Source: Levilactobacillus brevis ATCC 14869 = DSM 20054 | GTDB taxonomy: Bacteria; Bacillota; Bacilli; Lactobacillales; Lactobacillaceae | Direction: 5' to 3' | NCBI RefSeq assembly: GCF_001433855.1 | Contig: NZ_AZCP01000003.1 | Coordinates: 207,627-231,626 of the forward strand | DNA: 24,000 nt | Shown: piece by piece, positions 722-23,205 of the stretch | How the letters are laid out: each line of letters starts with the position of its first letter | Numbering within the stretch: the stretch's first letter is position 1 | Program-made: the position numbers and the translations under genes | Notes under the pieces: generated by a model | The model's input: only the letters and a program-made list of their open reading frames with translations | What the model was told of the DNA's origin: nothing | The model's database searches: none

Positions 722-749
722 TTGACAATTTTTGAAAAATGCTTATCTT
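722..749 (+). promoter_or_regulatory. Sigma-A-type promoter of the gntR-ARH-NCS1-pfkB operon
   Basis: TTGACA at 722-727, a 16-nt spacer, then TATCTT at 744-749. Confidence 0.45.
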
Positions 750-752
750 AGA

Positions 753-768
753 ACTTGAGTACTCAAGT
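753..768 (+). promoter_or_regulatory. Perfect 16-bp palindrome; candidate GntR/HutC operator at the predicted transcription start
   Basis: acttgagtactcaagt is its own reverse complement. It lies directly after the -10 and 25 nt before the likely ATG (793) of the GntR gene. The core GAGTACTC contains the GT..AC half-sites typical of HutC-type operators. Confidence 0.45.
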
Positions 769-792
769 AATCGAATTAAGGGACTGAAAGAA

Positions 793-1485
793 ATGGCCAT
801 TGATAAACATAGACGAAATAGCAGTATTCGAGCGCAAATTGTTGCGGATATTCAAGCTAGTATTTTAAAGAATATGCAGACCGGCGATAAGCTACCATCA
901 GAAGCGGCCTATGCACGGCAGTATGATGTTACGCGGTCAACCATTCAAAAAGCACTCAAAGATTTGGAAGACTTACAGATGATTGATCGGGTTCAAGGCA
1001 AAGGGAGCTTTGTGAAGTTAACGAAACCAAAGATTGATATGTTTAACTTCAAAGGCTTTTCTGACTATGCCTTGCAGTTAGGAGCGACGCCGGTTACCCG
1101 GGTCTTAAAGCAAGAGATTGTTGACCATCACTTGATACTGCAGCGATTACGGGGAATCAAAACTAGCGATGAAGTTGTTCAACTGACTTTAGATGAATCA
1201 CACCTCAATCTGGAGCAGTTTCCGGGGCTAGAACAGACTGACTTTGAGCAGAATTCTTTGTACCAAACGCTACGAAGTCAATTCAAGGTTTATCCAGCGA
1301 CAGCTAACCTTTTGGTCACACCAATTATGCCAACCGTCGCGCAAGCGGAGCTGTTAGAAGTGGCTGATAGCCAACCGTTACTTCAAGTAACGGGACAAGT
1401 ACGTACGGCCAATAATGACTTGGTCGAAACAATCAAGATTATTTATAGTGACCAATCTAATTTTAAATTTGTGGTTGGCGTATAA
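793..1485 (+). CDS. GntR/HutC-family transcriptional regulator (winged HTH plus UTRA-like effector domain)
   Basis: N-terminal LPSEAAYARQYDVTRSTIQKALKDLEDLQMIDRVQGKGSFV is a classic GntR wHTH. I moved the start to ATG 793 (MAIDKHRR...). It has AAGGGA 9 nt upstream, and the track start at 739 would lie inside the promoter. Confidence 0.8.
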   Translation: MAIDKHRRNSSIRAQIVADIQASILKNMQTGDKLPSEAAYARQYDVTRSTIQKALKDLEDLQMIDRVQGKGSFVKLTKPKIDMFNFKGFSDYALQLGATPVTRVLKQEIVDHHLILQRLRGIKTSDEVVQLTLDESHLNLEQFPGLEQTDFEQNSLYQTLRSQFKVYPATANLLVTPIMPTVAQAELLEVADSQPLLQVTGQVRTANNDLVETIKIIYSDQSNFKFVVGV

Positions 1486-1508
1486 AGCGAAAGGGAGTAG
1501 AGAATCAG

Positions 1509-2513
1509 ATGGAACGGACTAAGGATAAAGTATTGGGAACAATTTATGGACAGGCGATTGGGGACGCGATGGGAATGCCCTCAGAACTTTGGCCGGTTGA
1601 AAAAATTCGGCAGCAATTTGGCGGTCTAATTACGACCTTTTTAGATGGCCCACAGAATAATGATATTGCTCTGAATTTTACCAAGGGAGAATATACCGAT
1701 GATACCAACCAGGCCCTAGCAATTTTAGATTCTCTAATTGAAACGAACTGGCAACCGGATCAGCAAAATTTGGTTAAACATATTATGGCTTGGGCGGATG
1801 CTGTGGGTGCATGGGATAACAATATCTTGGGGCCAAGTAGCAAGGCGGCATTGAAGGCCATTAAGGCAGGGCAAGACCCGGCACCGGTTACAGCTAAGGC
1901 GCTGACGAATGGATCAGGTATGCGGATTGCCCCCATTGGCACGCTGTTTACGCCGGATCAAATCAATGAGTTGGTTCAGATGGTCTATGAGGTTAGTCGC
2001 GTGACTCATTCTAGTGACGTTGCAGTGAGTGGTGCCAGTCTTATCGCGGGCGCCGTTACGGCAGCTATGGCCGATTATGAGTGGGATGATATTGTGACTT
2101 ATGCCTTAAATGCCAATGATTTGGGCTACCAAATGGGTAGTCATACTTGGGCTGCCAAGACTCATGAGCGAGCCCTATTAGGGATTCAATTGGCGCAGCA
2201 GTACCCCAATGATGAGCCTAAGTTTAGTCAGGCCATTTATGACCTTGTGGGAACTGGAACGATGATTTCGGAAAGTATTCCGGCAGCATTCGCGATTGCT
2301 TACTACGCTCGAGATGTTCAAAAATGTGCCTTACTTTGTGCTAATTTAGGTGGTGATACCGATACGATTGGGGCCATGGCAACCGCTATTTGTGGCGCTA
2401 AGACTGGATTTAAAGCTATTGATCCTGCTTGGATTCAGACAATTGATGAAAAAAATCCGCAACACATTATGTCTAACTATGCCGATCAAATTCTTAGTTT
2501 TAAAGCGAACTAG
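1509..2513 (+). CDS. ADP-ribosylglycohydrolase (ARH/DraG/YegU) family hydrolase
   Basis: 334 aa. N-terminal GQAIGDAMGMPSE and C-terminal GGDTDTIGAMATAI are the two metal-binding acidic motifs of the ARH fold. Confidence 0.85.
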   Translation: MERTKDKVLGTIYGQAIGDAMGMPSELWPVEKIRQQFGGLITTFLDGPQNNDIALNFTKGEYTDDTNQALAILDSLIETNWQPDQQNLVKHIMAWADAVGAWDNNILGPSSKAALKAIKAGQDPAPVTAKALTNGSGMRIAPIGTLFTPDQINELVQMVYEVSRVTHSSDVAVSGASLIAGAVTAAMADYEWDDIVTYALNANDLGYQMGSHTWAAKTHERALLGIQLAQQYPNDEPKFSQAIYDLVGTGTMISESIPAAFAIAYYARDVQKCALLCANLGGDTDTIGAMATAICGAKTGFKAIDPAWIQTIDEKNPQHIMSNYADQILSFKAN

Positions 2514-2533
2514 CTTTTTGGAGGATTATCATA

Positions 2534-3907
2534 ATGAATAATGAGCTCGTCAAAATTTCGGATGCAGATAAAACATTAACGCCAGGGAAAATTTTCTACA
2601 ACTGGTTTGCCGCGAATATTGGGATTATGGGATTCGTCTTTGGTGCGATGATTGTTGCTTATCATCTGTCGTTTGCCCAAGCAATTCTCGCTGCTTTTTG
2701 TGGCGCGTTGTCCTTTTTAGTGCCAGGATGGGTGGCGATGATTGGTCAACGAGAAGGTGTGACAACCTTTAAGCTGAGCCGGGCGGCCTATGGTACTCGG
2801 GGGAATAAAATTCCCAATGCCATCGCTTGGATTAATATGGTGGGGTGGCTTTCGGTTAACGTGATTACGGGGACCATGCTATTAATTTCCATGTACGGTG
2901 TTTTAAATATCCCCAAGAACACCGTCACACGGGCCGTTGCTCTGGCTATCTTTGGTGGGTTAGTGCTGCTGTCTGGTTTGTTAAAAGAAGCCACTTTAGC
3001 CAAGATTCAAACATGGTTAAGCTATGTCTTTGGCGCGTTAACGGTTGTTATTTTGGTTCTCTTCTTGCTAAAGGCGGATTGGCAGGCCGCTTTTAATCTT
3101 CCAGGTGGTCATTGGATTAGCGGTTTCTTGCCAGCTGTCAGCATCGTTGCCGCCGGTTCAGGCATTTCTTGGTCGATGGCAGCCGCCGATTGGGGTGCCT
3201 ATGTCAAGCCAGAAACTAAACCGCAAGCGACCTTTTGGGGAACAGCCTTGGGTGGCGCAATACCCTTGTTTGTCCTCATGGCCGGTGGTGTTTTGTTAAG
3301 TACGATTGAACCGGCTTTGGCGACAACGGGTGATCCGTTTGGCGTAATGTATTCAGCCTTACCAAGCTGGATCGGCGTAATTTATTTTCTGGTAGCTGCT
3401 GGGGGTCTAATCCCGCAATGTATTGTATCTTTGCGGTCGGCCCGAATTAACTTGGGGACGATTGGGATTCGTGTTTCACAACGGACTTCCTTAGTTATTC
3501 ATGGTTTAATTGTAATTTTGATTCCAGTTTACGTTCTCTTTATCTCAGGAAATTTTCTAGCCAACTTCGAATTGTTCTTAAACTTTTTGGGGATTTGTTT
3601 GGCTAGTTGGGTTGCCATCTTCCTATGCGATAGTGCGATGTTCAGAAAAAACGGCTATGAGCTGGCGTTATTAGTGCCAGATTCTAAAAAGCACTATAAC
3701 TGGGGTGGCATTATCTCTTGGGTCATTGCGACGATTACGGGTTTTCTATTTACAAATAATGCAATTTGGAATGGTCCATTTGCCCATGGAATTTTTAGAA
3801 ATAATAGTCTCGGCGTTTTTATCTCGGCAATTGTTGCGATCATCTGTATGTTTATCGTTAAAATGGTAGCGCATTCAAATGGTGAGGGGGTTATGCATCA
3901 TGAGTAA
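2534..3907 (+). CDS. NCS1-family (purine-cytosine/CodB-like) permease
   Basis: 457 aa with about 12 hydrophobic segments. Contains SRAAYGTRGNKIPNAIAWINMVGW, typical of the cytosine/purine/uracil/allantoin permease family. GGAGGA lies 8 nt upstream. Confidence 0.85.
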   Translation: MNNELVKISDADKTLTPGKIFYNWFAANIGIMGFVFGAMIVAYHLSFAQAILAAFCGALSFLVPGWVAMIGQREGVTTFKLSRAAYGTRGNKIPNAIAWINMVGWLSVNVITGTMLLISMYGVLNIPKNTVTRAVALAIFGGLVLLSGLLKEATLAKIQTWLSYVFGALTVVILVLFLLKADWQAAFNLPGGHWISGFLPAVSIVAAGSGISWSMAAADWGAYVKPETKPQATFWGTALGGAIPLFVLMAGGVLLSTIEPALATTGDPFGVMYSALPSWIGVIYFLVAAGGLIPQCIVSLRSARINLGTIGIRVSQRTSLVIHGLIVILIPVYVLFISGNFLANFELFLNFLGICLASWVAIFLCDSAMFRKNGYELALLVPDSKKHYNWGGIISWVIATITGFLFTNNAIWNGPFAHGIFRNNSLGVFISAIVAIICMFIVKMVAHSNGEGVMHHE

Positions 3908-4778
3908 GGCTTTAGTGTTGGGCGCCGCTTTTGTTGATGTGGTCGTTAACGTTCCACGATTACCCTTTTCTGGCGGGGATGTTACGGGTGATTTAAAGTC
4001 TTATCGAATTGGTGGTTCGGCCTTTAATGTTTATGGCGCCTTACGCTACATGCAGGCATCGGCAGATCTACTGGTGCCAGTGGGTGAAGGCGACTATGCC
4101 ACGCGCGTTAAACAACATTTAAGCAATCAAGGGATTTCCTTAAAATTACCGGTGACGGGTGCTGATAATGGTTGGGATTTATCGTTAGTGGAGCCCGATG
4201 GAGAACGTAGCTTTTTGACAATTAATGGGATTGAACAATGTTGGAAACCACAGTGGTTCCAGCAGGTTCAGCTGGCCGATTATGATTATATCTATGTTAG
4301 CGGTTATGAATTAGAGAATTTACGTTCAGCTAAGGTAATCTTAGATGGTCTGCGGCAACGGCGACCGGATGCCCAAATCTTATTTGATACGTCGCCACGA
4401 ATTGGCGAAATTCCATCAGAAATTTTACAACAAGTGTTAGCGGCGCACGTCATGGTTCATTGTAACGAAGATGAAATTGGAAAGATCATGCCTGACGGTC
4501 GCACCGTTGCAGAAAAAGCACACCGTTTATTCGCGTTAACCCAGAGCCCCGTCATGGTGACGCTGGGAGGTCAGGGCACCTATTATGTCGATGGCACGGC
4601 AACCGGGCAAGTTCCAGCGCAGAACGTTCCGGTTGTCAACACAATTGGCGCTGGTGACACGCATTGTGGCGGGATTATTGCCGGTTTAATGGCCGGACTA
4701 ACACTCCCACAAGCTATCAAGCAAGCTAATCAGTTGTCGGCACAAGTGGTTGGTCAGGAAAATGGCAGTCTGTCTTAA
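3900..4778 (+). CDS. PfkB-family carbohydrate/nucleoside kinase (ribokinase-like)
   Basis: C-terminal NTIGAGDTHCGG is the PfkB GAGD anion-hole motif. I chose the start at ATG 3900 (MSKALVLGAAF) because GGTGAGGGGG lies about 10 nt upstream. It overlaps the permease stop (3905-3907) by 8 nt, which suggests translational coupling. Confidence 0.8.
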   Translation: MSKALVLGAAFVDVVVNVPRLPFSGGDVTGDLKSYRIGGSAFNVYGALRYMQASADLLVPVGEGDYATRVKQHLSNQGISLKLPVTGADNGWDLSLVEPDGERSFLTINGIEQCWKPQWFQQVQLADYDYIYVSGYELENLRSAKVILDGLRQRRPDAQILFDTSPRIGEIPSEILQQVLAAHVMVHCNEDEIGKIMPDGRTVAEKAHRLFALTQSPVMVTLGGQGTYYVDGTATGQVPAQNVPVVNTIGAGDTHCGGIIAGLMAGLTLPQAIKQANQLSAQVVGQENGSLS

Positions 4779-4788
4779 TTGGTTAGTG

Positions 4789-4818
4789 GGTCGGGATGAA
4801 AATCCCGACCTTATTTTT
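4789..4818 (+). terminator. Rho-independent terminator of the ARH/NCS1/PfkB operon
   Basis: ggtcgggat-gaaa-atcccgacc gives a 9-bp perfect stem, followed by ttattttt. Confidence 0.7.
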
Positions 4819-4880
4819 GTGAAATGCCCTAATTGCTCATCATTTAGGGTATTCTTAACCTAACTAAAGGAGGGGATTGC

Positions 4881-5780
4881 ATGGATATTCAAGAAGGGTA
4901 CATGCCGTTTAGATCGTATCAGACATATTATCGGGTGGTTGGTGATTTACGGTCACCGTTACCCCCCTTACTGTTATTGCACGGTGGCCCGGGATCGACC
5001 CATAACTATTTTGAAGCTTTTGATCAACTAGTAGCGACAACCGGTCGGCCAATTGTGATGTACGATCAATTGGGCTGTGGTCGGTCATCCATACCGACTG
5101 ATCCCCATCTTTGGCAGGCAGCAACCTGGGTGGCGGAATTACGGGCGTTACGTGCTTATTTGAAACTCGACCGCGTGCACTTATTAGGCCAGTCGTGGGG
5201 CGGCATGCTGGCGCTTATTTACTTATGTGACGACCAGCCACAGGGAATTCAGAGTGTGATTTTGGCCAGCACCTTATCCTCGGCTCATTTGTGGGCCCGC
5301 GAACAGCATCGCTTGATTCAATTCATGTCAGCGACTGACCAAGCGACCATTCACCAGGCTGAAATGACGGGAGACTTTACAACACCCGCTTACTTGGCAG
5401 CTAACGAGCGGTTCATGATCCAGCATGCAACTGGACCGCTTACCGAGCAAACACCAGAATTCTTGCGGCGATCTAAGCGCTTGGGCACAGCCGCTTATAC
5501 CACGGCTTGGGGGCCTAACGAATATTTTCCCACGGGAACGTTACGGGACTATGATTATACAGCAAAGTTAGCGCAACTACCGTACCCAACGTTAGTGACC
5601 AGCGGTGTCAATGATCTCTGCACACCATTGGTGGCTAAGACGATGGTTGACCAGTTGCCTCACGCCGAATGGACCTTATTTCCGCACAGTCGGCATATGG
5701 CCTTTATTGATGAGCCGGCCGCTTATCAAGCGCGACTGACTCAGTGGCTAGCCGCTCATGACGAGGTGACTAATGATTGA
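4881..5780 (+). CDS. pepI: Proline iminopeptidase (alpha/beta hydrolase, prolyl aminopeptidase)
   Basis: 299 aa. HGGPGS oxyanion motif and GQSWGG nucleophile elbow. Size and N-terminus are typical of lactobacillal PepI/Pip. AAAGGAGGGG RBS. Confidence 0.8.
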   Translation: MDIQEGYMPFRSYQTYYRVVGDLRSPLPPLLLLHGGPGSTHNYFEAFDQLVATTGRPIVMYDQLGCGRSSIPTDPHLWQAATWVAELRALRAYLKLDRVHLLGQSWGGMLALIYLCDDQPQGIQSVILASTLSSAHLWAREQHRLIQFMSATDQATIHQAEMTGDFTTPAYLAANERFMIQHATGPLTEQTPEFLRRSKRLGTAAYTTAWGPNEYFPTGTLRDYDYTAKLAQLPYPTLVTSGVNDLCTPLVAKTMVDQLPHAEWTLFPHSRHMAFIDEPAAYQARLTQWLAAHDEVTND

Positions 5781-6492
5781 AGTGACGTTTGATCCAACGC
5801 TAGCGAATACACTGGCCCAATCCATGAAATTAACAGCTATTGCCTTACCCTTAGACTTGCAGATTGGTGATTTAACGCGTTTAACTGATGCCAAAAATTC
5901 ATATTGGAGACTTAAGGCGCGCTATACCAAATCGGGCGGTGCCTCCGCTGAGTTTGCCGCCGTTACAACGAGTCAACAGCGATTGCAACGGATGTTAGCC
6001 ACTGGCACCACCTTGCGGGTATGGACCTCTGCCAATCCGGCTGATCAGTTGGGGTGGGGGTGGTTATGCAGTCAGTTAGTTCAAGCACAATTTATGGGGG
6101 TTGTTCAGCGGATTCAGATTCCTTTAAGTGGTCCCGTGATGACTGAAATGGGCCCGGTCTTTATGCAAAATTTAACCATTGGGGAGCTGGACGAGCCGGC
6201 GCTGGAACATGACTTAGCGACGGCCAAGGTGGTAACAGCAGCGGATTGGGTAGCCTTTAGTTATCACTGGCAAGCCTGCTATGAAGACAATGCGGCGTTA
6301 CGGTTAACGCTTGGTGGACGGGTGGTTGGCGTGCCACAGGACTTTTTAGATCCGTTGGTGCGAACCTGCTATCGACCCGAGCAATCCACGGCGCAGACTT
6401 TAGGTCGGATATTGGCCAATTATCCAATTGGCATGCCGAATTGGTGGTGGCAGTATCGCATTGACCAGATTGCCAAGGCGTCAGTCAGGTGA
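5773..6492 (+). CDS. Hypothetical protein; resembles the DUF1835/DUF3658 family
   Basis: 239-aa ORF whose ATG overlaps the pepI stop by 8 nt. The N-terminal pattern IEVTFDPTLANTLAQ...LPLDLQIGDL recalls DUF1835 proteins. This is from memory and was not searched. Confidence 0.5.
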   Translation: MIEVTFDPTLANTLAQSMKLTAIALPLDLQIGDLTRLTDAKNSYWRLKARYTKSGGASAEFAAVTTSQQRLQRMLATGTTLRVWTSANPADQLGWGWLCSQLVQAQFMGVVQRIQIPLSGPVMTEMGPVFMQNLTIGELDEPALEHDLATAKVVTAADWVAFSYHWQACYEDNAALRLTLGGRVVGVPQDFLDPLVRTCYRPEQSTAQTLGRILANYPIGMPNWWWQYRIDQIAKASVR

Positions 6493-12955: not shown

Positions 12956-12974
12956 ATAAATGACAGAATAAAAA

Positions 12975-13072
12975 ACACGGTCTGGTTGGTAGTCCAGGCG
13001 CGGCCAAAAGCCGTCAGTAACCTGCCTCCTTGGTTGTCCCTATTTTGTTAGTCATTTTAGGGAGGTGTTAGT
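12975..13072 (+). promoter_or_regulatory. Structured 5' leader; candidate yjdF-motif riboswitch (translational)
   Basis: There are two small hairpins: gtctgg..ccaggc at 12980-12999 and cggc-caaaa-gccg at 13001-13013. Two mutually exclusive anti-SD segments, cctcctt at 13025-13031 and tcccta at 13037-13042, can each pair with the SD tagggagg at 13058-13065. The downstream gene belongs to the YjdF family, after which the yjdF RNA motif is named. Confidence 0.35.
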
Positions 13073-13489
13073 TTGGTGATTCATAGCAAGCTAACAGTAT
13101 TTTTTGATCAAGCGTTCTATCGGGGCGTGTTCGAACAATGGACGCCAACCGGCTATCAGGTGGCGCGAGTGACCTTTGGGACTCAACCCCCATCTGCCCC
13201 ACAACTGCAACAAGTGATTTGGCAGCGGTGGCCGACTTTGCAATGGACGGCTCCGACGAGGGTCGTGGTGAGTGAGACCCATCATCGGGTCAAACAACGC
13301 CAACGTGCTGCCCAGCGTGAGCTTAAGCAACACGGGGCCCGACAACGGGCAACCGTGTTGCTTAAGACAGAGCATCGCCAAAACTTGCAGTTGAAAAAAC
13401 AACGGCAGCGTCAAGCGCGGGTTCAGCATGCCGCGGTGGTTCGTCAAAAACAGCAGGCTAAGCGGCTGGCTAAACGTCGCGGGCATTGA
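13073..13489 (+). CDS. yjdF: YjdF-family protein (DUF2992-like) with a highly basic Q/R/K-rich C-terminal tail
   Basis: The N-terminus LTVFFDQAFYRGVFEQ...YQVARVTFG matches my recollection of B. subtilis YjdF (LTIYYDGQFWVGV...). The C-terminal half is R/K/Q-rich. Start is TTG 13073 or GTG 13076, 7-10 nt after AGGGAGG. Confidence 0.7.
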   Translation: MVIHSKLTVFFDQAFYRGVFEQWTPTGYQVARVTFGTQPPSAPQLQQVIWQRWPTLQWTAPTRVVVSETHHRVKQRQRAAQRELKQHGARQRATVLLKTEHRQNLQLKKQRQRQARVQHAAVVRQKQQAKRLAKRRGH

Positions 13490-17160: not shown

Positions 17161-17191
17161 ATTATACCAGATTGAAGTTAGTTGGATTCAA
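17161..17191 (-). promoter_or_regulatory. Candidate extended -10 promoter for the 63-aa membrane protein
   Basis: The minus strand reads TTGAAT-19 nt-TGgTATAAT, with a second TATAAT 3 nt further downstream. The -35 lies in the last codons of the thiolase gene. Confidence 0.35.
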
Positions 17192-18347
17192 TCATCAGCG
17201 CCATCCCCATGCCACCGCCAATACACATTGAGGCGACACCTAAGTGAGTGCCACTGTGCAGGAGTTCATAGAGTAAGGTGACTACAATGCGGGTCCCAGA
17301 AGCACCTAGTGGATGACCCAAAGCAATGGCCCCGCCATTAACGTTTAGGCGGTCATCAGGAAGTGCCAGTGCCTGACCAACCGCGACGGATTGGGCGGCA
17401 AAGGCTTCATTTAATTCAAAACGATCAATGTCACTGACGGATCGCTGGGTTTTGGTTAAGAGTTGTTGGATTGCTGTGACGGGGGCGTAGCCCATGATGG
17501 CCGGGTCAATGCCGACTTCTTGGTAGCCACGGAGCGTTGCGAGATACGCAATACCGGCGGCTCGGGCGGTTGATTTTTTCATGAGAATCATGGCAGCGGC
17601 CCCATCGTTTAAGCCAGCGGCATTGCCGGCAGTAACGGTGCCAGCGGATTTAAAAGCAGGCCGGAGTGCGGCAAGTTGTTCACGTGAAGTTGTGGTGCGC
17701 ACGGCTTCATCGGTCGTTAACGTGGTGGTGCCTAAGGAGACGGGAACGATCTCGTCGGCAAAACGATTGGCTTGTTGTGCAGCGGTTGCCCGCCGTTGGG
17801 AACGAAGTGCGAAAGCATCTTGATCAGCACGGCTAATATGAAATTGAGCTGCAACGTTTTCAGCGGTGATGCCCATGGGGATGTCAGTGAAGGCGTCGGT
17901 CAAGCCGTCATGGGCTAGACTATCAGTGAGCGTAATATCACCAAATTTATGACCCCAACGGGTTTGCGGCGTGAGATAAGGGGCATTGCTCATGCTTTCG
18001 GTGCCACCGACTAGAACAATGTCGGCATCACCCATGAGGATGGCGCTTTGGCCCAAACGGATGGCTTTTAGGCTGGAGCCACAAACCTGATTAATGGTCA
18101 TCGCGGTGCTAGTGACGGGAAGACCAGCGTTAAGTTCAATTTGTCGGGCAATGTTTTGCCCTTGACCAGCCTGTAAGACTGAACCAAAGATGGTCTGCTG
18201 AATTGTGGCGGGGTCTAACCCACTGCGGGTAATCGCGGCTTTGGCAGCGATAGTACCTAATTGCTCGGCGCTTAAGCCCCTTAAACTTTTACCAAATTTG
18301 CCAATGGGGGTGCGTGCCGCACTGACAATAACAACTTCTTCTGCCAT
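17178..18347 (-). CDS. Acetyl-CoA C-acetyltransferase (thiolase II)
   Basis: 389 aa. Contains NQVCGSSLKA (active-site Cys), NVNGGAIALGHPLGASG, and CIGGGMGMA. AAAGGAGAG RBS. Confidence 0.9.
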   Translation of the reverse strand: MAEEVVIVSAARTPIGKFGKSLRGLSAEQLGTIAAKAAITRSGLDPATIQQTIFGSVLQAGQGQNIARQIELNAGLPVTSTAMTINQVCGSSLKAIRLGQSAILMGDADIVLVGGTESMSNAPYLTPQTRWGHKFGDITLTDSLAHDGLTDAFTDIPMGITAENVAAQFHISRADQDAFALRSQRRATAAQQANRFADEIVPVSLGTTTLTTDEAVRTTTSREQLAALRPAFKSAGTVTAGNAAGLNDGAAAMILMKKSTARAAGIAYLATLRGYQEVGIDPAIMGYAPVTAIQQLLTKTQRSVSDIDRFELNEAFAAQSVAVGQALALPDDRLNVNGGAIALGHPLGASGTRIVVTLLYELLHSGTHLGVASMCIGGGMGMALMIESN

Positions 18348-18532: not shown

Positions 18533-18561
18533 TTGCATTTAAAAAATATTCATGATAGAGT
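18533..18561 (+). promoter_or_regulatory. Promoter of the T-box leader
   Basis: TTGCAT at 18533-18538, a 17-nt spacer, then TGaTAGAGT (extended -10) at 18553-18561. Confidence 0.45.
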
Positions 18562-18567
18562 GTAGCC

Positions 18568-18803
18568 AACATCAAAAAACGAATAAGAAATCTTTCAAAC
18601 GAAGTAGTGACTTATCTGAGGGTTCAGAGAATTGGCGGTTGGTGCAAGCCATGCAGGGTAAGCTTAACGAAATACGAAAGGTGTTTCTTCGGGGTATCTC
18701 CACGTTATTGGGGATTAAAGTGCAGCGGACTTAGGTCCCTGAAGCTGGGTGGTACCGCGCTAAGGCGTCCCTTCTATTTTAGTATAGAAAGGACGCCTTT
18801 TTT
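18568..18803 (+). promoter_or_regulatory. T-box riboswitch leader, specifier codon UAC (tyrosine)
   Basis: Stem I elements: AGTAGTGA (GA/S-turn region), an AGAGA bulge at 18626-18630, and the distal loop TGGTGCAA at 18640-18647. The specifier loop GAAA-UAC-G has UAC at 18673-18675, directly 5' of the closing helix ctttc/gaaag. There is an F-box-like ACGTTA at 18702-18707, the T-box sequence TGGGTGGTACCGCG at 18746-18759, and then a terminator. Confidence 0.85.
18764..18803 (+). terminator. T-box expression-platform terminator
   Basis: ggcgtcccttc-tattttagtata-gaaaggacgcc followed by tttttt. The 5' arm is adjacent to the T-box sequence, giving the usual antiterminator alternative. Confidence 0.8.
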
Positions 18804-18832
18804 GATGTTAAAAATCATAGGAGGTTTTAGTT

Positions 18833-18991
18833 ATGGAGAAGCAAAATGTTAATTTAGGATTGTCGGATGATCGGTTACATTGCCCAGAATGCGGCGATAT
18901 TGTCTTCAAAAAGTTGCCGGGAACGACAGATATTGAGTGTATGAATTGTGGTCATAAAATGCCAGAGTTAACGAAATTAACCCACGCATAA
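18833..18991 (+). CDS. 52-aa zinc-ribbon protein (CPEC-x17-CMNC); not in the supplied ORF track because it is under 60 aa
   Basis: My translation: MEKQNVNLGLSDDRLHCPECGDIVFKKLPGTTDIECMNCGHKMPELTKLTHA*. AGGAGG at 18819-18824 lies 8 nt before the ATG. It is the first ORF after the T-box terminator and contains no Tyr codon. Confidence 0.6.
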   Translation: MEKQNVNLGLSDDRLHCPECGDIVFKKLPGTTDIECMNCGHKMPELTKLTHA

Positions 18992-19042
18992 ATAAGTATT
19001 ACAGATCAAAATTACTGTCAATATTTGATGGGAGGAATGAGT

Positions 19043-19303
19043 ATGCAGGAAACGAATCGTGTCATAAAAACTAAAGAGGACCACCCCATACGCGCTAAGG
19101 TAATTAGTGGAGCAGTTGCAGTTTTTATGTTGTTGCCATTAATTATAACTTTAATTAAATTTGATTGGCAGAAGATGAACGTTGTTCCATTACTAATAAT
19201 AGTCGGCATGATGGTGGCAATTATTACTGGCGTTTGGCGCCTTAGTCAGCAATTAATTACTGTAATTAGAGAGGGTGGGGATAGTGACTTCCGCGAAAGA
19301 TAG
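19043..19303 (+). CDS. 86-aa two-TM membrane protein, unknown function
   Basis: Start moved to ATG 19043 (MQETNRVIK...), 6 nt after GGGAGGA. Two hydrophobic helices: ISGAVAVFMLLPLIITLI and VVPLLIIVGMMVAIITGVW. No Tyr residue. Confidence 0.55.
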   Translation: MQETNRVIKTKEDHPIRAKVISGAVAVFMLLPLIITLIKFDWQKMNVVPLLIIVGMMVAIITGVWRLSQQLITVIREGGDSDFRER

Positions 19304-19329
19304 CGAGTATGCTATTATAGCGTTAACTT

Positions 19330-19364
19330 GGCGTCATATGGTCGAATCTCCATATGGCGTTTTT
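19330..19364 (+). terminator. Rho-independent terminator ending the T-box-driven two-gene unit
   Basis: ggcgtcatatgg-tcgaatct-ccatatggcgt gives an 11-bp stem including 2 G-U pairs, followed by tttt. Confidence 0.6.
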
Positions 19365-19442
19365 AGTTTGGATTAATTAAACTTTACATAAGGCTTAGTC
19401 ACTGGATGTCTGGCTAAATTAAAATTTGGAGGGACCAGAATT

Positions 19443-19756: not shown

Positions 19757-19785
19757 TTGACAACGCTTTCACTGTTGGCTATCTT
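19757..19785 (+). promoter_or_regulatory. Candidate sigma-A promoter dedicated to tyrS
   Basis: TTGACA at 19757-19762, a 17-nt spacer, then TATCTT at 19780-19785. This leaves a leader of only about 70 nt before the tyrS ATG. Confidence 0.45.
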
Positions 19786-19861: not shown

Positions 19862-21118
19862 ATGAATATTATTGATGAACTAACCTGGCGTGGTGCAATT
19901 AATCAACAGACCGATGCTGAAGGGCTAAAAAAGTTAACGTCTGAGAAGAAAATATCGTTGTATTGTGGAGTTGATCCAACGGGCGACAGTATGCACATTG
20001 GGCATTTGATTCCATTTATGATGATGAAGCGCTTTGAATTAGCCGGGCATCACCCCTATATTTTGATTGGTGGTGCGACTGGGAGTATTGGTGATCCCAG
20101 TGGTCGAAAGACGGAGCGTCAATTACAAACCATGGATAAAGTGCAGCATAATGTTAAAGCCTTGTCGCGACAGATGCAGCGGCTATTCGGTGGGGATTCA
20201 AATGTGACGATGGTAAATAACTATGATTGGTTATCTAAAATTTCTCTTTTGGATTTTTTGCGGGACTATGGGAAATTAGTTAATATCAATACCATGTTGG
20301 CTAAGGATATTGTTGCCAGTCGTCTAGATACTGGCATTTCATTTACGGAGTTTACGTACCAAATTCTGCAGTCAGTGGATTTCTTGACGCTGCATAACGA
20401 TCATAATATTCAGTTGCAGATTGGTGGAGCTGACCAATGGGGAAACATTACTGCTGGAATTGATTTAATTCATAAAATTAAAGGGGCCGACGAAGCCGTT
20501 TATGGGTTAACGATTCCACTTATGTTAAAGGCAGATGGAACCAAATTTGGCAAAACAGCTGGCGGTGCGATCTGGTTAGATGCTGATAAGACGTCACCGT
20601 ATGAATTTTATCAATTTTGGTTGAATCAGGATGACCGGGATGTTATTCGCTACTTGAAATTTTTCACATTTTTGGGGCAGGATGAGATTAATCAGTTAGC
20701 AGCCACTGTTGAGGATGAACCAGAAAAGCGATTGGCCCAGCGACGTTTGGCAGAGGAAGTCACCCGTTTTGTTCACGGCGAGGAAGCTTTGGAGTCAGCG
20801 CAGCACATTTCGGAAATTCTATTCTCGGGAGATATTCAAAGGTTGACACTTACTGAAGTTCAAGAAGCATTTGAAAAGGTGCCAAATGTTTCGATTAATT
20901 CCGAACCAACTAACATTGTTGAGCTGTTAACCGAAACAGCGATTGAACCTTCACGGCGGCAAGCACGTGAGGATATCACTAATGGTGCGATTACGATTAA
21001 TGGTGAACGCTGTACGAATACGGACGCACAATTGAATCCTAAAACGAATTTCTCTGGTAAGTTTATGGTTATCCGACGGGGGAAGAAAAATTATTTCTTA
21101 GCAAAAGTAAAAGATTAG
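19862..21118 (+). CDS. tyrS: Tyrosyl-tRNA synthetase (tdc-locus copy)
   Basis: 418 aa. HIGH motif (DSMHIGHLIPF), KMSKS variant (TKFGKTAGG), and a C-terminal S4-like domain. Synteny with tyrDC and tyrP. Confidence 0.95.
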   Translation: MNIIDELTWRGAINQQTDAEGLKKLTSEKKISLYCGVDPTGDSMHIGHLIPFMMMKRFELAGHHPYILIGGATGSIGDPSGRKTERQLQTMDKVQHNVKALSRQMQRLFGGDSNVTMVNNYDWLSKISLLDFLRDYGKLVNINTMLAKDIVASRLDTGISFTEFTYQILQSVDFLTLHNDHNIQLQIGGADQWGNITAGIDLIHKIKGADEAVYGLTIPLMLKADGTKFGKTAGGAIWLDADKTSPYEFYQFWLNQDDRDVIRYLKFFTFLGQDEINQLAATVEDEPEKRLAQRRLAEEVTRFVHGEEALESAQHISEILFSGDIQRLTLTEVQEAFEKVPNVSINSEPTNIVELLTETAIEPSRRQAREDITNGAITINGERCTNTDAQLNPKTNFSGKFMVIRRGKKNYFLAKVKD

Positions 21119-21324: not shown

Positions 21325-23205
21325 ATGGAAAAAAGTAATCGCTCACTTAAAGATTTAGATTTAAATGCATTATTTATTGGGGATAAGGCCGAAAATGGAC
21401 AGTTGTATAAAGATCTGCTTAATAAATTAGTGGATGAACATTTAGGATGGCGTAAGAACTACATACCTTCGGATCCAAATATGATTGGTCCAGAAGATCA
21501 AAACTCTCCAGCGTTTAAAAAGACTGTTGGGCATATGAAGACAGTCTTAGATCAATTGTCAGAACGGATTCGAACAGAGTCTGTTCCATGGCATTCGGCT
21601 GGTCGTTATTGGGGTCACATGAATTCAGAGACCCTAATGCCTGCTCTATTGGCGTATAACTATGCCATGTTATGGAATGGTAATAACGTGGCTTATGAAT
21701 CTTCACCAGCAACGTCGCAAATGGAAGAAGAAGTTGGCCAAGAATTTGCCCGATTAATGGGTTATGACTATGGTTGGGGCCACATTGTCGCAGATGGTTC
21801 CTTGGCTAATCTTGAGGGACTCTGGTATGCGCGAAATATTAAATCACTCCCGTTTGCCATGAAAGAAGTTAATCCAGAATTAGTTGCCGGTAAGTCCGAT
21901 TGGGAGCTTCTTAATATGCCGACTAAAGAAATTATGGATCTTTTGGAGAATGCGGGTTCTCAGATCGATGAAGTCAAGAAGCGTTCAGCTCGAAGTGGTA
22001 AGAATCTACAACGCCTTGGGAAATGGCTAGTACCACAAACGAAGCATTATTCTTGGATGAAGGCCGCTGATATCATTGGTATTGGTTTGGATCAAGTTGT
22101 TCCTGTTCCAATTGATAGTAATTATCGGATGGATATTCAAGCCTTAGAAAGTATTATTCGTAAATATGCGGCTGAAAAGACACCAATACTAGGTGTGGTT
22201 GGTGTGGCCGGATCAACTGAAGAAGGTGCCGTTGATGGCATTGATAAGATTGTCGCTTTACGTCAAAAGCTGCAAAAGGAAGGAATTTACTTTTATCTAC
22301 ACGTAGATGCTGCATATGGTGGATATGCTCGGGCATTGTTCTTGGACGAGGACGATCAGTTTATTCCATACAAAAATTTACAAAAAGTACATGCGGAAAA
22401 TCATGTCTTCACGGAAGATAAAGAATACATCAAGCCAGAAGTCTATGCGGCATATAAAGCTTTCGATCAAGCAGAGTCCATTACAATTGATCCCCATAAG
22501 ATGGGATATGTACCATACTCGGCTGGGGGCATTGTCATTCAAGATATTCGGATGCGTGACACGATTTCCTATTTTGCAACATATGTATTTGAGAAGGGTG
22601 CCGATATTCCGGCATTGCTAGGTGCTTATATTCTGGAGGGCTCCAAAGCGGGTGCCACTGCTGCATCTGTTTGGGCAGCACACCACACATTGCCATTGAA
22701 CGTGACAGGATATGGGAAGTTGGAAGGTGCCTCAATTGAAGGGGCTCACCGTTACTATGATTTCTTGAAGAATTTAAAGTTTGAAGTGGCTGGTAAACGG
22801 ATTTCAGTTCATCCGTTAATCTCACCTGACTTCAATATGGTTGACTATGTTTTAAAAGAAGATGGCAATGATGACTTAATTGAAATGAATCGATTGAATC
22901 ATGCCTTCTATGAACAAGCATCTTATGTTAAAGGGTCCTTGTATGGTAAAGAATATATCGTATCACATACGGACTTTGCTATCCCAGATTATGGTGATAG
23001 TCCATTGGCATTTGTTGAAAGTCTAGGCTTTAGCGAAGCTGAATGGCGACATGCCGGAAAGGTTACAATCATTCGCGCTTCGGTTATGACGCCGTATATG
23101 AATCAACGAGAAAACTTTGACTACTTTGCACCACGAATCAAAAAAGCAATTCAAGCAGACCTTGAAAAAGTCTATGCTTCGGTTAATCAAAAGGAAAATG
23201 TTTAA
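21325..23205 (+). CDS. tyrDC: Tyrosine decarboxylase (PLP-dependent, group II decarboxylase)
   Basis: 626 aa. I recognise the N-terminus [32 protein letters not shown]... as L. brevis TDC. The PLP-lysine motif is [22 protein letters not shown]. Confidence 0.95.

Follow-up and report, generated by a model that had tools for sequence, protein, structure and literature searches.

Nearly all T-box leaders control genes for aminoacyl-tRNA synthetases, biosynthesis or transport. In the window analysed here, i.e. the whole stretch of 24,000 nucleotides (nt) from Levilactobacillus brevis ATCC 14869 (= DSM 20054; contig NZ_AZCP01000003.1), a T-box leader for tRNA-Tyr lies at the border of a tyrosine decarboxylase (tdc) island. 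The first genes behind its terminator encode a zinc-ribbon protein of 52 amino acids (aa), here termed ZnR, and an 86-aa membrane protein with two predicted helices, here termed TM2, which raises the question of what this T-box controls and what the two small proteins might do. An earlier note on the same DNA had described the T-box and the two open reading frames (ORFs) behind it, and this arrangement was borne out by the ORF list, hydropathy, AlphaFold models and the Rfam family RF00230.

Overall, we lean towards a reading in which the small genes belong to a module of the tdc island that is gated by the Tyr T-box, the small proteins being made upon tyrosine starvation and regulating the tyramine pathway. 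The parts of this reading differ in strength. We are highly confident of the anatomy and the conservation of the module, and the gating of ZnR-TM2 by the T-box is likely, whereas a regulatory role of the module in the tdc pathway, which is proposed by analogy, is tentative and may well prove wrong. Coordinates of all features are collected in Table 1.

The T-box leader

The leader in the window matches RF00230 over the full model (positions 1-219) with 62.9 bits (E = 7e-13), and orthologous leaders reach 70-87 bits, compared with a curated gathering score of 93 bits. Despite this sub-threshold score we accept the leader as a functional Tyr T-box, judged by its anatomy and by comparison with its relatives. 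The specifier loop, GAA-A-UAC-G, spans positions 18669-18676, and the pattern GAA-N-UAC recurs in the related leaders with N being A in most lineages, C in locus L098 and U in the leader of a Vagococcus tyrS gene. Since the base before UAC differs between leaders and the triplet itself does not, the specifier is read as UAC, i.e. Tyr, and not as the overlapping AUA. The box GGGUGGUACCGCG, with its UGGU bulge, is unchanged across seven aligned orthologous leaders from seven species; tRNA-Tyr has the discriminator base A73, and UGGU suits a tRNA with A73.

Structural comparison of the same seven leaders by RNAalifold gave 10 base pairs with changes on both sides, most of them in Stem III and in the terminator, the terminator stem alone having five such pairs. 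The predicted promoter of the T-box is kept in position in seven species, its Secundilactobacillus version being TTGACA-17-TGaTAATGT, and the site in the window (18533-18561) was not picked up by a consensus promoter scan of the window. The same box and the same specifier are found in the leader of the tdc-linked tyrS of Enterococcus durans, which has been studied experimentally (PMC3315439).

As a separate observation, locus L095 contains a second T-box (2620-2862, 85.7 bits) just upstream of a gene for a class II aminoacyl-tRNA synthetase (tRNA-synt_2), which flanks the tdc island there, so that two T-boxes lie within 2 kb.

The zinc-ribbon gene and the membrane protein gene

ZnR and TM2 are, by their pattern of substitutions, real proteins under purifying selection. 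Pairwise Nei-Gojobori comparisons, in which synonymous sites are near saturation, give ratios of nonsynonymous to synonymous substitution rates (dN/dS) of 0.015-0.1 for ZnR and 0.1-0.35 for TM2. The protein-like conservation that the earlier note had made the touchstone for the two ORFs is thus present, all values (0.015-0.35) being well below 1. For comparison, dN/dS is ~0.025 for TyrS and, within Levilactobacillus, ~0.02 at 94-98% identity for HTH_59, the product of the gene following TM2; TM2 evolves fastest of the four. Among L. brevis strains, ZnR and TM2 vary by single residues, and none of these changes affects the four Cys or the C-terminal tail. Both are listed at NCBI, with accessions in public L. 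brevis entries, under the name hypothetical protein.

The ribosome-binding site (RBS) of ZnR, a perfect AGGAGG as the earlier note had it, begins ~16 nt past the end of the U-run of the T-box terminator; the RBSs of ZnR and TM2 are both strong. The spacing of the Cys pairs, given before as CxxC-x17-CxxC, was a miscount and is CxxC-x15-CxxC. All four Cys residues are kept in 17 of 17 ZnR copies from at least nine lineages, the copies being 37-52 aa long. Further conserved elements are an N-terminal segment NLGLTDD(K/R)LH in Levilactobacillus, an invariant H-C-x-x-C with F25 and K27, and the C-x-x-C of the second knuckle, while E19, G21, D22 and the GH that follows this knuckle are each replaced in a single lineage. 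The AlphaFold model of ZnR, which was built from two sequences, consists of three short strands and a disordered N-terminus, with a predicted local distance difference test (pLDDT) value of ~83-85 in the core.

ZnR had been called unlisted. It has in fact already been deposited as 'hypothetical protein' in L. brevis records, e.g. ABJ65267.1, and is RPC12/RpoP-like according to one source. No Pfam or NCBIfam family matches above its cut-off: the best matches, to generic zinc ribbons only, reach 19-23 bits where the cut-offs are 24-37. Searches of PHROGs and PADLOC with ZnR gave no match above noise. Likewise, the ZnR profile run against PDB sequences (E >= 0.008) and the ZnR model run through Foldseek (E >= 0.15) retrieved generic zinc ribbons of ribosomal proteins and RNA polymerase subunits. 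These best, non-significant matches in sequence and fold stem from the group of small C4 zinc ribbons (CPxCG-type, e.g. the archaeal HVO_2753-like proteins, RpoP/Rpb12, S27e, L37Ae and the N-terminal ribbon of AccD), which combine two CxxC knuckles with a three-stranded ribbon, as does ZnR in its model. Unlike this group, to which the matches remain below cut-off, the ZnR family has its own NLGLTDD(K/R)LH segment and its own genomic context.

The number of ZnR genes varies. A single copy is present in L. brevis, Secundilactobacillus, L095 and L098, and tandem copies are found in L. suantsaiihabitans (two), L. enshiensis (three) and L. fujinensis (four). Each tandem copy has a GGAGG RBS of its own and all are under purifying selection; the first and the last copy of an array carry a C-terminal ELxKL(T/I)H tail, whereas the middle copies are without it.

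TM2 has two hydrophobic stretches according to its hydropathy, and the AlphaFold model places helices at residues 15-39 and 47-85. Its relatives (81-88 aa) share the helical hairpin with a conserved, charged C-terminal tail. Helix 1 retains a PL motif and the short loop a Trp, most sequences have a G-x-W that ends helix 2, and the tail motif I-x-x-G-x-D-x-[DE]-[FY]-[RK]-E-R is conserved. The charge distribution weakly suggests that both termini are cytoplasmic, which would make the tail reachable for a cytoplasmic partner such as ZnR.

The family is small. Single-sequence searches of 5.8 billion proteins with ZnR and TM2 gave matches only in Levilactobacillus, and a TM2 profile search of 5.8e9 sequences retrieved 11 clusters, from Levilactobacillus and Secundilactobacillus. 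A full HMMER scan for TM2 of 1.84e9 representatives yielded 12 matches, of which the seven best-scoring look like true relatives; the scan added five distant relatives of 81-86 aa and a 29-aa fragment matching the C-terminal tail, and the remaining five matches are weak and concern longer or unlike proteins. TM2 had no match in Pfam, NCBIfam, PHROG or PADLOC.

The 3' end of the TM2 gene shows a further peculiarity. When five Levilactobacillus lineages are compared, 0-5 of the 13-14 codons for identical amino acids differ within the last 14 codons (0-3 in nine of ten pairs), versus 30-54% elsewhere in TM2. This constraint is at the nucleotide level and is recorded here as an unexplained synonymous conservation. 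The same end of the gene contains the T-box-like string GGGTGG...CCGCG just upstream of the terminator that follows TM2. A second, degenerate T-box before that terminator was considered and rejected, as cmscan gave none at E up to 1 and no antiterminator pairing was seen by eye.

Two more observations concern the reading of this region. In the window, ZnR and TM2 are in frame with each other, with one TAA and 17 sense codons between them, and the same is true of L. fujinensis; a read-through fusion of ZnR and TM2 was discarded because L. enshiensis and S. yichangensis do not preserve this relation. Strong promoter-like matches on the minus strand (10-11 of 12 positions) lie inside TM2, in the AT-rich codons of helix 1 (window 19171-19142, L091 6118-6091, L004 5467-5440), and are probably due to chance, their -35 part not being conserved between genera.

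Conservation of the module at tdc loci

The earlier note had treated ZnR and TM2 as a two-gene unit. The module in fact comprises three genes, since HTH_59 follows TM2 in every context read; the ZnR gene itself occurs in one to four tandem copies. The order is the same in all these contexts, i.e. Tyr T-box, one to four ZnR genes, TM2, HTH_59, tyrS, tdc and tyrP, with nhaC next after tyrP wherever the locus reaches that far. The contexts represent at least nine lineages in total and include L. enshiensis, L. fujinensis, L. suantsaiihabitans, S. yichangensis, S. silagei and S. hailunensis, two lineages from Sequence Read Archive assemblies and a metagenome contig from the Joint Genome Institute that ends within the ZnR gene and has the T-box region outside the contig. 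Recurrence of the pair behind Tyr T-boxes or next to tdc loci, a question raised in the earlier note, was seen in every context read.

The chromosomal flanks of the module differ by lineage and include a thiolase gene, a gene for a PfkB kinase, recA and an aminoacyl-tRNA synthetase gene. As the flanks differ between lineages, the T-box belongs to the island and not to the flank. In the tdc loci of a Pectinatus metagenome-assembled genome and of Vagococcus the T-box stands directly before tyrS and the trio is absent. Taking the loci read together with the plasmid, viral-contig and metagenome searches, no member of the ZnR/TM2 family turned up away from a tdc locus: a tblastn search of 72,556 plasmids with TM2 retrieved nothing, profiles of ZnR and TM2 found no relatives among viral contigs, and a metagenome scan with the ZnR profile retrieved L. 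brevis-like loci only. By its synteny and its distribution the module is a conserved accessory of the tdc island, so far only in Levilactobacillus, Secundilactobacillus and a few relatives.

The position of the module bears on the question whether it has anything to do with tyrosine at all. It might instead be a selfish or island-maintenance cassette, either the remnant of a mobile element with an excisionase-like HTH_59 or a toxin-antitoxin-like pair, in which TM2 would be the toxin and the zinc ribbon the antidote, both having come to lie behind the T-box by accident. The relatives of HTH_59 would suit such an origin, as they are small DNA-binding proteins on Firmicutes plasmids, e.g. on plasmids of Listeria, Limosilactobacillus and Enterococcus beside transposases and a restriction-modification enzyme, and HTH_59 resembles the DNA-binding part of an 'excisionase' PHROG (6e-10). 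A cassette would also be in line with the location at an island border where the flanking genes differ between species, with a zinc-ribbon copy number of 1 to 4 and with the fast evolution of TM2. Nevertheless, we regard this explanation as very unlikely, given the exclusive link of ZnR/TM2 to tdc loci, the negative searches of plasmids (TM2) and of viral contigs, PHROGs and PADLOC (both proteins, nothing above noise), and the lack of an integrase or transposase gene next to the module at all loci read. Moreover, no gene of the region is better conserved than HTH_59 (dN/dS ~0.02), and the T-box is under structural selection. As for a small-membrane-toxin system in particular, the pair occurs in a single genomic context, with none in plasmids, viral contigs or PADLOC, which is not the pattern by which such systems are recognized.

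Transcription units behind the T-box

The proposal that the ZnR-TM2 unit is closed by its own terminator, beginning at 19330, was upheld. All five Levilactobacillus lineages compared have this terminator, its stem showing G-U/A-U changes between them, and in L095 a different terminator-like hairpin occupies the same position after TM2. Downstream, a promoter-like block, TTGACA-17/18-TATCTT/TTATGT, is present between HTH_59 and tyrS in eight of eight aligned lineages (the window, L001, L002, L089, L095, L004, L091 and L098) and is the only conserved element of the otherwise divergent spacer. Owing to the terminator, ZnR-TM2 appears to be a separate T-box-gated transcription unit in Levilactobacillus, and owing to the conserved block the tdc-linked tyrS gene has its own predicted promoter in the clade. 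Taken together, the two elements suggest that ZnR-TM2 is the proximal cargo of the T-box and that tyrS is not directly gated by it.

This arrangement can be compared with the tdc cluster of E. durans IPLA655, which represents the same island, tyrS-tdc-tyrP-nhaC, with a UAC specifier and the box UGGGUGGUACCGCG, and for which the same logic of induction at scarce tyrosine holds as is proposed here (PMC3315439). In E. durans, however, the leader of 322 nt abuts tyrS (PMC3315439), whereas in L. brevis the T-box terminator and tyrS are ~1 kb apart, the stretch between them carrying three small genes as well as a terminator and a second, predicted promoter.

The enterococcal arrangement suggests an alternative, i.e. 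a long-leader operon in which the T-box mainly controls tyrS, the three small genes are co-transcribed passengers and the terminator after TM2 is leaky. The T-box stands directly before the tdc-linked tyrS not only in E. durans (PMC3315439), but also in Vagococcus and Pectinatus, and neither Secundilactobacillus nor L098 has a terminator between TM2 and HTH_59 or between HTH_59 and tyrS. There, HTH_59 starts 18-55 nt downstream of TM2 (18-21 nt past the TM2 stop codon in Secundilactobacillus, with no terminator between). In the window, no plus-strand terminator was found between HTH_59 and tyrS. A transcriptome study of L. brevis by RNA sequencing, moreover, found tyrS strongly induced late in growth, tdcA being not induced (PMC8419935). 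The conserved TM2 terminator in five lineages, the unrelated terminator-like hairpin in L095 and the promoter-like site before tyrS in all eight lineages count against this alternative, and mere passengers would not be expected to keep purifying selection and synteny at ~30-50% protein identity. All in all, we consider a long-leader operon improbable.

Tyrosine content of the small proteins

The earlier note had pointed out that neither ZnR nor TM2 contains Tyr, with about five residues expected, and this holds: there is no Tyr in 138 residues, with 4.7 expected from the background of 3.42%, i.e. the frequency in 17 long ORFs of the window. The probability of finding none is 0.16 for ZnR (52 aa), 0.05 for TM2 (86 aa) and 0.008 for both. 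All of the other 19 amino acids occur in the L. brevis pair.

The depletion extends to the family. No Tyr is found in the 17 ZnR copies, where 3.3 Tyr columns would be expected from at least 98 substitutions. Among 14 TM2 sequences, Tyr occurs in one column versus 9.5 expected from at least 278 substitutions (crude Poisson P ~0.001, an estimate that overstates the significance because it ignores the restricted substitution spectrum of membrane helices). This sole column corresponds to the aromatic residue of the tail motif, which is either F or Y. The suggestion that Tyr-free proteins fit expression under starvation is thus supported in part: the depletion is family-wide, but the absence of Tyr is not a rule, since six of the 14 TM2 sequences have one.

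The scarcity might also have arisen by chance, both proteins being very short, which would touch the composition claim only. Taken singly, neither protein is remarkable in its probability of lacking Tyr, the Tyr of the six TM2 sequences lies in the most conserved motif, and HTH_59 (two Tyr) and TyrS (ten), both potentially behind the same T-box, are not Tyr-poor. Tyr also rarely arises by substitution in membrane helices, which weakens the Poisson estimate. We have doubts about such an accident without finding it far-fetched, as Tyr is the sole missing amino acid and was predicted beforehand from the specifier, with a joint probability of 0.008, and as the depletion recurs in both families. 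The scarcity of Tyr is therefore taken as real, not absolute, and it is compatible with, but no proof of, selection for translation when tRNA-Tyr is uncharged.

Comparison with anti-TRAP and possible mechanism

To our knowledge, anti-TRAP (RtpA/YczA) is the only well-studied small protein regulator that is gated by a T-box. Its gene, rtpA, is followed in B. subtilis by the membrane-protein gene ycbK, and YcbK is a larger membrane transporter. Anti-TRAP from B. subtilis is a 53-residue protein in which a zinc ribbon lies between an N-terminal segment and a C-terminal helix; a tRNA-Trp T-box mediates its induction, and it works solely by binding to another regulator (PMC10327191).

The layout of the two systems is alike in several respects. 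In both, a T-box for one uncharged tRNA precedes a zinc-binding protein of about 53 aa whose zinc ribbon is flanked by an N-terminal tail and a short C-terminal segment, and a membrane-protein gene comes next. Each protein lacks the amino acid in question, i.e. anti-TRAP is without Trp, as read from a sequence verified against PDB 2BX9, and ZnR is without Tyr. Differences concern the specifier (Trp versus Tyr), the knuckles (CxxC-x10-CxxC in anti-TRAP, CPxCG/CxxCGH with a 15-residue spacer in ZnR), the membrane partner (the larger YcbK versus an 86-aa hairpin) and the tandem amplification of the ZnR gene to up to four copies. The RtpA family is not among the best 25 of 31 Pfam matches of ZnR (E up to 1). 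Judged from layout and sequence together, the ZnR module is an analogue of anti-TRAP and not a member of its family.

Based on this analogy we speculate on how the module might work. From what is established for T-boxes, uncharged tRNA-Tyr would stabilise the antiterminator, transcription would pass positions 18762-18803 and ZnR and TM2 would be made, the low number of Tyr codons aiding their translation under tRNA-Tyr starvation. ZnR may then act by protein-protein binding, as anti-TRAP does, possibly docked to the membrane via the cytoplasmic tail of TM2. Its target may be HTH_59 and, through HTH_59, the tyrS/tdc promoters, or else TyrP, TDC (the decarboxylase) or TyrS directly. Tyrosine starvation would thereby be coupled to the tyramine pathway, and tyrosine would be spared for translation. 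In a more specific version, the trio of ZnR, TM2 and HTH_59 would be a tyrosine-starvation switch, the Tyr counterpart of anti-TRAP, in which ZnR assembles on the TM2 tail and either sequesters HTH_59 or inhibits the TyrP/TDC machinery, so that decarboxylation is throttled and tyrS is re-tuned. This version is attractive by analogy, and we consider it unlikely in such detail.

For TM2, small membrane proteins such as SgrT, AcrZ, MgtS and KdpF may serve as a mechanistic lead only, there being no homology to TM2. These proteins have fewer than 100 aa and one or two helices, are induced by stress and are encoded beside, or co-regulated with, their target pathway.

Several observations weigh against our reading of a Tyr-gated module that regulates the tyramine pathway. 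The RF00230 score lies under the curated gathering score (93 bits) in all members of the clade, the promoter assignments are consensus matches only, and the models of ZnR and TM2 are of moderate confidence (mean pLDDT 67-69). In Secundilactobacillus and L098, where no terminator follows TM2, one long transcript may run from the T-box on to tyrS. One Tyr is carried by six of the 14 TM2 sequences, and HTH_59 keeps two conserved Tyr residues. A homology of ZnR to anti-TRAP was rejected: the hhalign probability is 2.6% over 12 columns, and anti-TRAP (2BX9) is absent from the results of an hmmsearch of the PDB with the ZnR profile at E up to 10.

The mechanism of T-boxes is already known, and so is one precedent for a small zinc protein as their cargo, anti-TRAP. 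Our literature search found no paper describing the ZnR and TM2 families, their exclusive link to tdc or the tandem amplification of ZnR, nor one describing the displacement of the T-box from tyrS or the scarcity of the cognate amino acid at this locus. At this locus another small zinc-ribbon protein, unrelated to anti-TRAP, lies behind a T-box together with a membrane partner, and tyrS, the enterococcal-type cargo, has its own predicted promoter. The family-wide scarcity of the cognate amino acid would be a clean and testable case of proteins whose composition suits the starvation that induces them. A regulatory role of the module, if it has one, would account for how lactobacilli that produce tyramine keep back from decarboxylation the tyrosine required for translation, and tyramine formation in fermented foods could then be influenced genetically. 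Should the switch exist as outlined, it would be the second known protein anti-regulator controlled by a T-box and the first identified regulator of lactobacillar tyramine production.

Further features of the window

Table 1. Features of the tdc island module in the window and zinc-ribbon arrays in related loci
Feature	Position	Strand	Basis and details
Thiolase gene	17178-18347	-	Pfam; AT-rich spacer between thiolase gene and T-box leader
Predicted T-box promoter	18533-18561	+	-35 TTGCAT, 17-nt spacer, extended -10 TGaTAGAGT; position conserved
T-box leader, Tyr-specific	18585-18775	+	Rfam RF00230; specifier UAC 18673-18675 after GAA-A
T-box sequence	18747-18759	+	GGGTGGTACCGCG with UGGU bulge; part of the leader
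T-box intrinsic terminator	18762-18803	+	Stem AAGGCGTCC...GGACGCCTT and U6; fold of -22.1 kcal/mol
ZnR RBS	18819-18824	+	AGGAGG, 8 nt before ATG
ZnR, 52-aa C4 zinc-ribbon protein	18833-18991	+	ORF list; H16-CPEC-x15-CMNC-GH41
TM2 RBS	19030-19035	+	GGGAGG, 7 nt before ATG
TM2, 86-aa two-helix membrane protein	19043-19303	+	ORF list, hydropathy; conserved C-terminal tail ...VIREGGDSDFRER
Last 14 TM2 codons, low synonymous divergence	19262-19303	+	Comparison of five Levilactobacillus lineages
Intrinsic terminator closing the ZnR-TM2 unit	19330-19366	+	Hairpin 19330-19361, 12 bp (5 G-C), U-run, -16.5 kcal/mol
HTH_59 DNA-binding protein, 82 aa	19443-19691	+	PF20038, 73.1 bits versus cut-off 27, residues 3-64
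Promoter-like site for tyrS	19757-19785	+	TTGACA-17-TATCTT; consensus scan
tdc-linked tyrS	19862-21118	+	Pfam tRNA-synt_1b, 4.8e-82
Tyrosine decarboxylase gene (tdc/tyrDC)	21325-23205	+	Pfam tyr_de_CO2_C, 9.8e-68
Tandem ZnR array, four copies	L002 9237-9949		
Tandem ZnR array, three copies	L001 9673-10185		
Tandem ZnR array, two copies	L089 about 5620-5946		

Two other parts of the window were noted in passing. A cluster at 739-5780 encodes a GntR/UTRA regulator, a protein of the ADP-ribosylglycohydrolase family, a permease of the cytosine/purine type and a PfkB kinase, and it looks like a catabolic operon of the nucleoside type, unrelated to the T-box module. A yjdF (azaaromatic) riboswitch aptamer at 12959-13057 (plus strand; 84.5 bits, above the gathering score) lies directly upstream of an ORF at 13073-13489 for a 138-aa DUF2992 protein, which looks like the usual yjdF-type arrangement.

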